Below, piece by piece: positions 12,180 through 28,582 of a stretch of 64,000 nt of DNA. The notes below the pieces were generated by a model. That model had not been told where the DNA came from. It worked only from the letters and a program-made list of their open reading frames with translations, and made no database searches. Position numbers and translations under genes: made by a program. Source of the stretch: an uncultured Candidatus Bathyarchaeia archaeon. Its GTDB lineage: Archaea; Thermoproteota; Bathyarchaeia; 40CM-2-53-6; RBG-13-38-9. Positions within the stretch are counted from its first letter, which is position 1. The number at the start of each line of letters is the position of its first letter. The stretch is taken from positions 827-64,826 of the forward strand of contig CAYZRW010000007.1 of NCBI GenBank assembly GCA_964480955.1. The letters run 5' to 3'.

Positions 12180-13307
12180 ATGAACGTGAAGCTTCAGGTC
12201 GGTTCAGCTGTCTATGAAGTCAAACCTGAAAATATGGAAGCCTATCTACAGGGGCTGCTTAGGTGCCCTGTGAAGTTAGTATCGATCGAGAAGCTGGGGG
12301 AGGGATTTCACAATGCTGGTTTTCTCATAGTCTTCACCAGCGGTCGCAGGACTGGGAGAATCGTCATGAGGATCGTTCGTGGAGATACTGGCTGGGGGCA
12401 TGACTACTTGGGCGATCGCTGCGGAGTTCTGCTACTCCAACACAGACTGATGCAGATGGCGCCACCAGGAACATGCTCCAAGTCTCTCGACGTAGCCGCC
12501 ATGATGGCTGACGGCTCGATCAACTCTATCGGCGACTCTGTCGAATTCCTCCATTTCGTGGAGGAGGTGTCTGAGATAGAGAATACACCATACTCAGCCG
12601 ACCTCTTCGCCGTCTCAGACAGAGGAAGTCTATCCGATACGGACAGGCTTCGCGTCAAGATAGTAGCGGACTACTTGGCAGACCTACACTCCACCAAGAA
12701 ACCCAGTCCGAACCTGTACATGCGACATATTCGAGACCTCATAGGTCACGGGGAGATGCTCATGGGGGTCATAGATACGTATCCAGACCCTGATGATTTG
12801 AAATTCACTTCGAGACAGGAGTTCGAGAGGATAGAGTCCGAGTCTGTCCGCTGGAGAAACAGGATAAAACACCTCTACCACAGATGCAGCAGAATTCACG
12901 GAGACATGCATCCTTTTGGAAATGTGAGATTCACCAAAGACAACTCGCTTTTGGCCCTGGACCTCTCAAGGGAGGAGTTCGGTGAACCCGCGGACGACGT
13001 CACGGGCATGAGCATAAACTACATCTTCTTCAGCATATGGAGACACGGAGAGTTGATATCGCCTTTCAAGGAGCTCTTCAACATATTCCTTGAGAGGTAC
13101 TTGGAGAGAACCAGAGATCTCGACATCCTCAAGGTGATGGCGCCGTTCTACGCATTCAGAGGGACCGTGGTCGCTCACCCTATCTACTACCCGAAACTCG
13201 ATCCGAGTAGAAGGAGGAAGATCTTTAACTTCATAATCAACGTCCTGAGTGAGGAAGAGTTCGACCCCGCAAAGGTCGAATCTTACTTGGAGACCAAACC
13301 AAGTTAA
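12180..13307 (+). CDS. Aminoglycoside phosphotransferase (APH)-like kinase
   Basis: LGEGFHN Gly-rich loop, RIHGDMHPFGN catalytic loop, GEPADD. Confidence 0.75.
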   Translation: MNVKLQVGSAVYEVKPENMEAYLQGLLRCPVKLVSIEKLGEGFHNAGFLIVFTSGRRTGRIVMRIVRGDTGWGHDYLGDRCGVLLLQHRLMQMAPPGTCSKSLDVAAMMADGSINSIGDSVEFLHFVEEVSEIENTPYSADLFAVSDRGSLSDTDRLRVKIVADYLADLHSTKKPSPNLYMRHIRDLIGHGEMLMGVIDTYPDPDDLKFTSRQEFERIESESVRWRNRIKHLYHRCSRIHGDMHPFGNVRFTKDNSLLALDLSREEFGEPADDVTGMSINYIFFSIWRHGELISPFKELFNIFLERYLERTRDLDILKVMAPFYAFRGTVVAHPIYYPKLDPSRRRKIFNFIINVLSEEEFDPAKVESYLETKPS

Positions 13308-26023: not shown

Positions 26024-28326
26024 TCACCCTTGATTAAAATAATCTATTGAGGCTTGGTCCTGAGGCTCCAACATTCTCTTTATGCGGTGAATATCGTAGC
26101 CCAGTGGCGAGAGTATGTTGGCCGCGGCGTTCAGAAGCATCGCCTCATACTTTGCAAGATCGTATCTCAAGTCATTATTCACAAGCTCTCTTGCAAGAAC
26201 CCGCCTCTCAGGGATAGGGTTGTCTCCATCAACAATCAAGAAGGCCACGGACTCCCCAGAATTTATTTCCAGGCCCTCGTCGGTAAGCTGTTTTGCAGCT
26301 ATGGATTGAAGGCTATTCTGCACATACTCTGACGGGTCTCTAGACAGACGTTTCTGAACGAGCAGATCAGAAAAATCTACCCTGCGGCCCCTCAATACCT
26401 CAAGATAATCTCCAAGTATCTGGATTGCCCCTGGAATCAGCCTGAGAAGTTCCTGCGAATTCTTGGCCTCTGCAAGATGGGATATGATGCTGGACTGACA
26501 TCTCCTTATGAAGGCGGGCACGTCACCTCTTCGAACCTCGATCCCCCTACACTTGACCCTTCCATCAGCGAAGGCACCGTAATACTTGTTGAGGGCGGGA
26601 AGCCCAGGCCTAACCTTCGACGGTAAGAAAACGACCCATCTATATCTTCCTTCGAACGACACAGGTAAGCCTAGCTCAGACTGAATCCTATCCGCCAGCC
26701 CTAGATAGTCAGCCTCCTCAGCACCTCTCTTCCCAACCCATACAGAGTCGACAATTGCGTGAACCAGACTGAAGCCTTCAGACTCAACAATCTGAACCGT
26801 CTTCTGGAGCACTTCCCTCGCAAACGCGCATGTGGCGATGTGAGCGTCAATCTTTCCGTATCTAGCGTTCTTGAAGCCGAGGTACCCGACTGCGCATGCC
26901 CAAGCCTCTGCTTAGGGCATTATGCGCACACAAGTATCCATTTGAGCGCCGCCTGCCTCTTACGGTAGGTCTCCCTCAACGGTGGGTCGCTGGCTTCCTT
27001 CATCATCTGTTTATACCTTAACCTCTTCTCAAGAAGCTCCTCAAGCGATATCGGGACTATACCTCTCCTCTTCTCACAGATTTGATACCCTAACTCTGGA
27101 ACCCTATTTTGCGATTCTGGACAACATCTGCACCTGACAGTCTCACCGCTCAGATTAAACTTACACATCAAGGTTGGGTAGAGTGAGGAGAAGTCCAGCT
27201 CCCCAACATCATCATAGACACCTGCGACCGGCGTATAGTATAACCCACCCCTATCAGCGATAATGAGTTCCTCAGCGGTCTTCAACTCTTCTGGAAGGGC
27301 CTTAAACCATGGGGCCAGAATATCCCTCCTGAAGGCATGGTAGAGTTGGATGGAGGTCATGCTCGTTCCTATCGTTGAGTCGACACACCTCTGGATAGGA
27401 ATACGGCAAGTCCTAGAGACCTCTATGATGCCTTCGAGTCCACAATCGTCATAGAGGAAGGCGTGCTCTCGGTCTACATGTATTCTCCCATAAAGGCGAA
27501 CTGGGGCAGGGCGGTATTGAACCCTGCCATAACTGAAGTACACCCTTCCCCGCTGGCTAAAAATTCTAAGGGGAGACCTCTCACGTCCCAGAACCATCTG
27601 GCTGGAGACCCCCAGTCTCTGGGCGCGCTTCGCCAAGTACGGGAATAAGAAGGAGTTTCCATTGTGGGTGTAAACCACATCCGGATCAATCTCGCGGAAG
27701 AGCCTCACAAGTCCCAGAAGATTCTCCTCCTCATAAGAAGAGTCTAGCACAAGAACTTCTTCCTGATTTCCAACTGTGATCTCCTTCAACGGGTCTTCGA
27801 GGCTTGGAATAGAGCATCCAGAACCTATTGAGAGATCTAGATAGACACAGGTCAGCTCTGGAACCCCATAATCTATGCTGTCGCTACTGTCAAGAACCTG
27901 CCACTCGACCAAACCATAATTCAGGTTGGCCTCAACTTGAGCTAGAGGAAATATATCTCTCTCATAGAGGTAGATTTGTTCTGCAGGAATATCCACATTA
28001 AAGAGACGAAACTTTCTTGACGACAGAGCTATTCGCTTTGCAAGTTTAACTGCTTTCCCGGTCGTGGATACTGGAATCTTGAGAACCTGCGACTTCTCAT
28101 AGTCCTCTATATTCAGATACTTCTCTTCAAAAGATAAGTCCTCGATGTTGAGTTTCTTTGCAAGCTCAACTAAGTCTGAATTTTCTCCCGAAGCATAGAA
28201 GGACGGTCTCCAATCGTCCACCAGTCTCTGGGCTTCTCCGCTTCTCAATTTTACCCAGACAACCATTCCTCCATCTTTTTGGTAGAGGTCAAGGATCCAG
28301 CCTTGAATTCTTGAGTTGCTCAACAA
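26024..28326 (-). CDS. polB2: Family B DNA polymerase, PolB2 group, one gene with a 32-nt intron (exons 28326-26922 and 26889-26024; 756 aa)
   Basis: ELDFSSLYP (motif A), spliced [19 protein letters not shown] (motif B), HAIVDS (PolB2-type motif C), degenerate exonuclease domain, C-terminal PIP-like QASIDYF. Confidence 0.88.
26890..26921 (-). other. Putative BHB-type (EndA-spliced) mRNA intron in polB2, 32 nt
   Basis: mRNA GCGC-AT^A-ATGCCCTAAGC-AGAG-GCTTGGGCAT-GCGC-AG^T: 4-bp central helix, two 3-nt bulges, 10-bp inner stem; removal gives TGC GCA TTC GGG TAC (CAFGY). Confidence 0.85.
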
Positions 28327-28582
28327 TATTCTGAATCCCCTCCATAGTGCTCCTTAGCTCCTTCAACTCCTTTGTGTGAGCAAAGAGGGCTGAGAGGAAC
28401 ATGCCTTCAACCACTGAAGGAAAGGCTGCTGCGCCAGCTTCGGAGGCGTAGCTTCTGACCGTGTTTACAAGGTCTTCAAAGAATGACTTCTCTTCTCTCC
28501 TTAACATTCTGGCGAATTTCTTCCAGGTATGCGAGATCTCCTGCTCGATCGCCGCCCTATAGGAGGGTATTGTTCTTCCCAT
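28289..28582 (-). CDS. Small PolB2-associated helical protein (arCOG07300-like)
   Basis: MGRTIPSYR...WKKFARMLR.E.K..FEDL; located between the radA-like gene and polB2. Confidence 0.8.
   Translation of the reverse strand: MGRTIPSYRAAIEQEISHTWKKFARMLRREEKSFFEDLVNTVRSYASEAGAAAFPSVVEGMFLSALFAHTKELKELRSTMEGIQNIVEQLKNSRLDP

Follow-up and report, generated by a model that had tools for sequence, protein, structure and literature searches.

A probable bulge–helix–bulge mini-intron in the family B DNA polymerase gene of an uncultured Bathyarchaeia archaeon

Among described systems, the closest to the element considered here is the intron in the cbf5 pre-mRNA of Crenarchaeota (Watanabe et al. 2002; Yokobori et al. 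2009, PMC2738675). Introns of this kind often carry a relaxed form of the bulge–helix–bulge (BHB) motif and are cut by a hetero-tetrameric endonuclease (PMC2738675). The 2009 survey places cbf5 introns in the Desulfurococcales and Sulfolobales only and treats cases beyond cbf5 as predictions (PMC2738675), and a 2020 paper gives cbf5 as the only BHB intron reported in archaeal coding mRNA (PMC7714728). Archaeal tRNA introns measure 11–175 nt (PMC2738675). The strict motif, hBHBhʹ, includes helices h and hʹ of at least two Watson–Crick pairs (PMC7714728), and non-canonical tRNA introns with a relaxed BHB are cut by (alpha-beta)2 or epsilon2 endonucleases (PMC5829648). The subject of this report is a 32-nt insert in the gene for a family B DNA polymerase (PolB), which is encoded on the minus strand of a 64,000-nt stretch of DNA, hereafter the window, from an uncultured Candidatus Bathyarchaeia archaeon (contig CAYZRW010000007.1, assembly GCA_964480955.1).

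On comparative evidence, these 32 bases are very probably a relaxed BHB intron, located in the pre-mRNA for the one family B polymerase that the genome was found to encode and spliced by the tRNA-splicing endonuclease and RtcB; a probability of roughly 0.88 is assigned to this reading.

The interrupted polymerase gene and its predicted fold

The polymerase gene is divided between two reading frames. The upstream open reading frame (ORF; 26920..28326) encodes 468 aa ending in KWILVCA and is followed by TAA, while the downstream sequence (ORF 26024..26812) lies in the −1 frame, which is open from GYLGF on; both ORFs, and the unspliced reading as a TAA plus a change of frame, are as the initial annotation had described them. 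The two halves fit a single family B polymerase model at adjoining positions. NCBIfam NF004418 is split over them at positions 9–435 and 438–716 of 717, and Pfam PF00136 at 44–159 and 282–452 of 453, with PF03104 also found in exon 1. Solved archaeal family B polymerases match the protein with E values down to 6e-29, the Pyrococcus abyssi enzyme being among the nearest. In the assembly, which is 95.5% complete, PF00136 matches these two halves only; PolD is present in the genome. The features of the locus, all on the minus strand, are the following.

26922..28326, minus: exon 1, encoding the exonuclease domain plus the beginning of the polymerase domain; ends with U, base 1 of the Phe codon
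26890..26921, minus: putative 32-nt intron; removal joins ..GCA U to UC GGG.., which makes the Phe codon
26924..26927, minus: 5ʹ strand of the central helix, GCGC, in the Cys-Ala codons of exon 1; pairs with 26892-26895
26921..26923, minus: 5ʹ bulge, AUA; predicted cut between 26922 and 26921
26896..26920, minus: intron-side helix hʹ, 25 nt, made of 6 bp, a bulged U, 4 bp and an AGAG tetraloop
26892..26895, minus: 3ʹ strand of the central helix, GCGC, inside the intron
26889..26891, minus: 3ʹ bulge, AGU; predicted cut between 26890 and 26889
26883..26936, minus: optional distal exon–exon helix, UACUUG (26936-26931) with CGGGUA (26888-26883)
26024..26889, minus: exon 2, starting with bases 2 and 3 of the Phe codon and continuing through the remainder of the polymerase domain to the stop; 287 codons

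In the proposed mechanism, the transcript would fold so that the GCGC of exon 1 pairs with the GCGC near the 3ʹ end of the insert, leaving two 3-base bulges and a hairpin on the intron side. The tRNA-splicing endonuclease, for which the genome has genes of 183 aa and 180 aa, would cut after the second base of each bulge, and RtcB would ligate the exons. The junction would create UUC (Phe) in motif B and with it a continuous protein of about 756 aa, whereas unspliced mRNA would end at a stop codon made by the 5ʹ bulge itself. In the window, the 5ʹ bulge and the next base supply this in-frame stop, UAA (26922-26920). The spliced frame of 757 codons that had been predicted at the outset was recovered as 468 + 1 + 287 residues plus the stop. 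It had also been proposed that the protein constrains the splice sites, and the sites given by the BHB rule are indeed the only ones that recreate the Phe codon.

Around the insert, the GCGC/GCGC helix, the AUA and AGU bulges and the 10-bp hairpin were read as originally claimed. The hʹ hairpin sits directly between the 5ʹ bulge and the central helix, and in isolation (26920-26896) it has a predicted energy of −13.2 kcal/mol. The local fold reaches −31.5 kcal/mol, compared with −21.5 ± 3.0 for shuffled sequences (z = −3.35; 2 of 200 shuffles equal it). The initial annotation had the outer helix as absent. This stands for the position directly abutting the 3ʹ bulge, where there is no helix, but not for the surrounding exons, as the minimum free energy (MFE) fold of this copy includes the 6-bp UACUUG/CGGGUA exon–exon helix, set off by three unpaired bases. 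Because no exon-side helix directly closes the 3ʹ bulge, the motif is of the relaxed form, which is the label it had been given. In the set as a whole, distal exon–exon helices are set off by 3–7 unpaired bases and are lineage-specific.

Two other classes of intervening element were considered for the insert. No Rfam family, self-splicing introns included, matches within the window, and a group I or group II self-splicing intron is excluded by this result together with the size of the insert. An intein is likewise excluded, the insert being 32 nt long and containing a stop. Separately, an ORF of 97 aa (window 28289-28582, minus strand) shares 38 bases with the beginning of the polymerase ORF, which has a TTG start as called.

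The same site in related genomes

The gene was sought in 41 close genomes and then in 401 genomes of the class, 152 of which have it at E ≤ 1e-60. The junction was read in 49 of 54 loci and was not readable in L007, L011, L015, L037 and L039 (L and G numbers are used here for loci and genomes, g and f numbers for genera and families; G000 is the window's genome). L011 stops at a contig end, the downstream part of L037 was sought within 1.4 kb and not found, and L054 was masked. Ten uninterrupted genomes of genus g23 are known from table rows and lie outside the junction set.

Inserts occupy exactly the same point in 22 of the 49 loci. Another 23 loci are uninterrupted, with one TTC or TTT codon between the halves (KWIL/TV..-F-GYLG); one locus, L020, is continuous at the site with a 1-nt break upstream; and three carry a 1-nt insertion at the junction. 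Alignment of the orthologues thus bore out an exact addition at the claimed point, in 22 genomes and with a length of 20–32 nt. Orthologues that are genuinely two-subunit at this site, which would have told against an intron, were not seen, each of the 23 uninterrupted loci having its single Phe codon. The 22 interrupted genomes belong to families f1 (genera g1 and g2) and f2 (g20, g21 and g23), both in the window's order, and the interruption therefore spans two families at about 50% protein identity. Insert lengths are 32 nt (n = 9), 31 (n = 1), 26 (n = 1), 24 (n = 6), 23 (n = 1), 21 (n = 1) and 20 (n = 3). Since these seven lengths fall into all three classes modulo 3, the insert is not readable as protein.

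A single BHB rule, applied blind, fits all 22 inserts. In each, four exon bases are fully paired with four bases lying immediately ahead of the intron's final two, the 5ʹ bulge is AUA, and an in-frame TAA or TAG stands at the junction. The 3ʹ bulge is always A-N-U (AAU in 15, AGU in 4 and AUU in 3), and the inner part is a hairpin closed from end to end. With a cut past the second bulge base on each side, U is joined to UC or UU, a Phe codon, in every case. All 22 copies therefore contain two 3-nt bulges on opposite strands with a 4-bp helix between them, as well as an intron-side helix hʹ of at least two Watson–Crick pairs.

Support for this structure also comes from the pattern of substitution. 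The long class of inserts comprises 10 sequences and the short class 12. In the long class, 83.4% of cells are paired (68.9% in shuffles), including 40 of 40 in the central helix and 89.9% in the hairpin, and compensatory, two-sided changes are found in 8 of the 10 hairpin pairs. The covariation score of this class is 0.492, compared with 0.214 ± 0.028 for shuffles, none of which reached it in 500 trials; slid registers score 0.029–0.053. In the short class, the central helix is paired in 44 of 44 cells, and 97% of cells are paired overall. Moreover, at exon–intron pair 21/52 of the central helix, f1 has G-C with the codon GCA (Ala), and f2 has U-A or U-G with the codon UCA (Ser), so that the intron tracks the exon.

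These features bear on the possibility that the insert is crossed by ribosomal recoding (frameshifting, stop read-through or bypass) with no cut in the RNA. The layout of the window copy lends itself to bypass: the codon before the stop is GCA, and 32 nt farther on, in register, comes another GCA, with the stop and the hairpin between the two. The bypass of phage T4 gene 60 resembles such an arrangement of stop, hairpin and matched codons. In addition, three g9 genomes with a 1-nt insertion at the same spot may use +1 frameshifting. However, the matched GCA/GCA pair is peculiar to the window; its nearest relatives, L004 and L005, have GCA/GUA, and f2 is without an in-frame match. The product of bypass would also have Val where every intact orthologue has Phe. 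A single frameshift could not join the two frames, because the −1 frame carries its own TAA downstream of the frame-0 stop, and seven insert lengths in three frame classes would require different events in different genomes. Recoding is thus regarded as highly improbable.

Selection on the downstream half speaks to how it is translated. This frame is complete in all 22 interrupted genes, at 269–299 codons (270–308 in intact genes). Over the first 25 codons past the junction, pS is 0.821 and pN 0.055 (231 pairs), with a pooled pN/pS of 0.068 and synonymous sites near saturation. At 13 of the 22 loci there is no ATG, GTG or TTG before codon 24, and in the window copy the first in-frame start is at codon 25. 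Purifying selection on codons that lack an early start indicates that these codons are translated in the frame of exon 1 and not from a start of their own.

This result weighs most directly on a second alternative, that the polymerase is genuinely split, the two ORFs being translated separately and the polypeptides assembling afterward. Split family B polymerases exist in some other archaea. Gene callers and databases handle the halves as two proteins: among the 120 nearest database clusters, 44 are short, of which 41 end at KWILVC[SA] and 2 belong to the 1-nt class; one of the truncated clusters is named "3ʹ-5ʹ exonuclease". Furthermore, at 9 of the 22 loci the downstream frame contains at least one start codon ahead of the junction. 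Yet where the first start comes only at codon 24 or later, as in the 13 loci above, the codons preceding it are conserved all the same. A break within motif B would lose the Phe present in all intact orthologues, and the full-length clusters read KWILV..FGYLG in 72 of 73 cases. A split gene also offers no reason for a conserved, covarying BHB structure, and it is considered very unlikely.

Least probable is a decaying gene, in which the insert would be disabling and the polymerase a pseudogene. The stop and the frameshift are present in the genomic sequence, and single-base frame breaks occur in the PolB genes of relatives (L020, L051 and L053). Against decay stand the complete downstream frame of every interrupted gene, the low pN alongside nearly saturated synonymous sites, the persistence of the interruption over two such distant families, and the fact that this is the sole family B polymerase detected in the assembly.

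The history of the intron was followed on a 45-gene tree for which the junction codon was masked and the root left unfixed. Loci L008, L051, L053 and L054, with a downstream part shorter than 200 aa, were excluded, as were L007, L011, L015, L037 and L039. Intron-bearing and intron-free genes interleave on this tree. Within f1, the intron is found in g1 and g2 and is absent from their sisters g8 and g5; within f2, the long form is found in g21, the short form in g20 and g23, and none in g9. Four presence/absence changes are needed with FastTree and IQ-TREE alike. Forcing the 22 intron-bearing genes into a single clade costs 294.7 log-likelihood units (p-AU 7e-49). Interleaving and the rejection of a single clade together imply several precise losses or more than one gain, which are not separable because the tree is unrooted. 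A common origin is favored by the hairpins of G000 (f1) and G176 (f2, g21), which have identical dot-bracket patterns around which the remaining long copies vary.

Other kinds of interruption were observed at or near this site. In L007, L015 and L039, KWILVC is followed at once by an insert, which begins 4 nt upstream of where the intron lies. The insert of L015 (1-1500, minus strand) contains Pfam Intein_splicing and LAGLIDADG domains and is the only one of the three in which an intein is Pfam-confirmed; the inserts of L007 and L039 are judged intein-like from their CLS/CLP-type starts alone. In L012, L022 and L026 (species-level genomes G033, G331 and G157; genus g9), the sequence reads TCC TTT CGG, compared with TCA TTC GG in sister genomes, which amounts to one extra base exactly where the intron lies. 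All three genes keep an intact downstream frame (274-297 codons), and they differ from one another at 34–50 synonymous and 12–14 non-synonymous codons of 250. The site is a candidate either for +1 frameshifting, in which tRNA-Phe would slip from UUU to UUC ahead of CGG, or for a scar left by imprecise intron loss. Usage of CGG is 4.1 per 1000 codons in G000, the window's genome, the 1-nt class itself lying in g9. Motif B of the polymerase thus hosts three kinds of interruption (intein, BHB intron and 1-nt shift) within two codons.

Elsewhere in PolB, single-base frame breaks are found in L020 (G027), as a 1-nt insertion 8–9 codons upstream of the site, and in L051 (G361) and L053 (G203), 34 and 135 codons downstream of it, respectively. 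These breaks have no BHB structure and are not introns at this site; they may be assembly errors, decay or recoding.

Other inserts, splicing enzymes and possible roles

Three further genes of the same genome carry inserts of comparable design.

L058:1483-1501 (G000 contig C37, ~13192-13210): cbf5, putative 19-nt intron; CCCU / AGA / 12-nt mini-hairpin / GGGG / AGA
L062:473-504 (G000 C3:77691-77722): NAD synthetase (NadE), putative 32-nt intron; UCGG / AUA / 9-bp hairpin / CCGA / AGA
L096:204-233 (G000 C10:4831-4860): Asp/Orn carbamoyltransferase, putative 30-nt intron, in-frame with a stop; CCGA / ACA / hairpin / UCGG / AGA

The cbf5 break lies between GHGGTL and DPMVTGVL, and removal of the insert restores the frame as GTL-DPMVTG. 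In NAD synthetase, the Pfam halves are contiguous (4-136 and 138-242 of 242), and splicing would give the Tyr codon of the GY.TK.GDG motif. Nine family-f1 loci have inserts of 30–34 nt in this gene, with stems that vary yet stay paired and a stop codon supplied by the 5ʹ bulge in 9 of 9 copies, whereas 11 other loci have one TAC or TAT; in G005 (f1), the gene is a 269-aa open frame, known at the frame level only. The carbamoyltransferase insert lies inside the STRTR motif, between Pfam halves at 1–52 and 54–148 of 148, and its removal restores Thr. Among f1 loci, 11 have inserts of 30–34 nt, and in 5 of these the 4-bp helix contains one mismatch; 13 other loci have one ACN codon. Applied to all four genes, the same cutting rule would restore Phe (PolB), Tyr (NadE), Thr (carbamoyltransferase) and Leu-Asp (cbf5). 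Each of the four inserts sits in the most conserved motif of its host enzyme.

The NAD synthetase and carbamoyltransferase cases came from a genome-wide scan for BHB motifs combined with ORF pairs, which gave 713 candidates in 560 ORF pairs and 226 after refinement, the PolB intron ranking first. The cbf5 insert was missed by both scans: its 77-codon upstream frame is under the cutoff, the unspliced frame runs 20 codons past the insert, and the 12-nt inner part has no predicted fold. Because of this miss, the scan is to be taken as conservative and not as a census. Besides PolB, 22 scan candidates were followed further. Those in a P-type ATPase (C1:80856) and PGI (C26:15862) were rejected, as one frame runs through, and C40:1291 was rejected as a shadow ORF with stops in the matches of relatives. 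L063, L066, L067, L068, L071, L075 and L098 were rejected as gene boundaries with different families on either side. L069, L070, L072, L073, L074, L097, L099, L100, L101 and L102 have a family on at most one side.

The genome also encodes candidates for the enzymes that such introns would need. Both splicing-endonuclease genes match PF01974/PF02778. The 183-aa protein matches solved endonuclease chains of 180–186 aa, which we take to be crenarchaeal catalytic subunits, end to end (E 3e-39 to 5e-37). The 180-aa paralogue is more divergent, and in a pairwise alignment it is without the residues aligned to a Tyr and a His of the 183-aa protein that are presumably catalytic. The 183-aa subunit is thus likely to be catalytic, and the pair fits a two-subunit enzyme composed of a catalytic and a structural subunit. 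Endonucleases with two subunits have been tied to relaxed motifs and to cbf5 splicing (PMC2738675; PMC5829648). An RtcB gene is present.

The tRNA genes themselves were surveyed with ARAGORN. Without its intron mode, the program found 7 tRNA genes in the genome and none in the 64-kb window. With intron mode, which is noisy, it returned 26 tRNA genes, 22 of them "with intron" and some with introns of 379–1,377 nt, and no count was drawn from this output. These results hint that most tRNA genes are interrupted or unassembled.

It is conceivable that the insert is removed from the RNA by some nuclease or ligase different from the tRNA-splicing endonuclease and RtcB, given that the link between enzyme and substrate is drawn indirectly and that the exon-side helix of the strict motif is missing. 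However, 3-base bulges, a 4-bp spacing and a cut after the second base are the geometry of this endonuclease's known substrates, and that geometry recurs in four genes otherwise unrelated in sequence. An insert of 20–32 nt is too small for a ribozyme intron, consistent with the empty Rfam search. The involvement of other enzymes accordingly seems most improbable, on a par with recoding.

Several points count against splicing by the tRNA machinery as proposed here. Cleavage, ligation, the efficiency of splicing and the exact junction are inferred from the DNA, and the cut after the second bulge base is a rule carried over from tRNA introns. The subunit composition and specificity of the endonuclease are similarly deduced from gene count and similarity. 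With respect to the motif, the exon-side helix h of strict hBHBhʹ is missing, as nothing pairs adjacent to the 3ʹ bulge. The outer helix was examined in three registers. The distal helix of the window copy fails in f2; across the long class it pairs in 61.7% of cells and shows no compensatory change. A CCUAG/CUAGG distal helix is paired in 68.0% (long class) and 100% (short class) of cells, with one-sided changes only. The short class is too invariant to support covariation, 86 of 500 shuffles reaching its score, and all shuffle-based statistics are inflated by kinship among the sequences. As to precedent, no report of a BHB intron in a DNA polymerase, NAD synthetase or carbamoyltransferase gene, or in Bathyarchaeia, was found in the literature searched, which did not extend to subscription journals and supplements that may hold such predictions.

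Should the inserts be introns, they might be more than neutral passengers, a bold suggestion that is rather unlikely to hold. In one version, they would be reduced descendants of mobile BHB introns that once homed into conserved DNA sites, and would now block homing by inteins or other introns by breaking the target. In the other, splicing would act as a switch, with the tRNA-splicing machinery setting the ratio of fragment to full polymerase. Because the 5ʹ bulge makes a stop in all 22 PolB copies, unspliced mRNA would give a 468-aa fragment that contains the exonuclease domain and part of the polymerase domain.

Comparison with known systems

If the intron is genuine, it enlarges a nearly empty class, since cbf5 has been, from 2002 on, the sole archaeal coding sequence shown to have a tRNA-type intron (PMC7714728). 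With at least four genes affected in one Bathyarchaeia genome and the PolB insert present in at least 22 genomes, mRNA splicing by protein enzymes would be recurrent in a major uncultured lineage. Annotation would also be affected: the 41 of 120 nearest clusters that are truncated at the site are filed as separate or partial proteins, with consequences for pseudogene counts and metabolic reconstructions. The interleaving of presence and absence makes this a workable system for studying precise intron loss, or repeated gain, in prokaryotes. In addition, the system should be amenable to experiment, as it involves a substrate of about 60 nt and small enzymes.

Like the cbf5 intron, the PolB insert is a short BHB-type element in a coding sequence; the cbf5 motif too is often relaxed and served by a hetero-oligomeric endonuclease, and its patchy distribution has been explained by gain and loss (PMC2738675). 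The window's genome itself has the 19-nt cbf5 insert of the same build. The two differ in host and lineage, the PolB host being a DNA polymerase of Bathyarchaeia, and the PolB intron lies in catalytic motif B at codon phase 1, with a stop made by its 5ʹ bulge in every copy. Splicing has been shown experimentally for cbf5, whereas for the PolB intron it is predicted from sequence comparison.

Relaxed tRNA introns share with it the 3-nt bulges 4 bp apart, the intron-side helix and a weak or absent exon-side helix (PMC5829648, PMC7714728). The length of the PolB insert falls within the range of tRNA introns (PMC2738675), and the genome has two endonuclease paralogues. Unlike those introns, the PolB element would be spliced from an mRNA that has no tRNA body, and one strand of its central helix is bound to codons (Cys-Ala or Cys-Ser) with which the intron strand covaries. 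HVO_1309 of Haloferax volcanii is likewise an mRNA processed at a BHB by the splicing endonuclease, but its BHB intron lies in the 5ʹ untranslated region (PMC7714728). The PolB intron, in contrast, stands in the reading frame and would decide whether the full protein is made.

Outside the archaea, HAC1/XBP1 mRNA contains a small coding intron that is cut by Ire1 at twin stem-loops and joined by tRNA ligase, which in animals is RtcB. There, as proposed for PolB, splicing by protein enzymes alters the reading frame of an mRNA and so the protein made; the HAC1/XBP1 system, however, relies on Ire1 and twin stem-loops and is a regulated stress switch, whereas PolB has a BHB. Inteins are removed at the protein level and keep the frame open. 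Both inteins and the T4 gene 60 bypass resemble the PolB case in that a conserved gene is interrupted and its product kept. The PolB insert differs from them in being only 20–32 nt long, in containing stops and an RNA structure, and in occurring in relatives that lack matched bypass codons.

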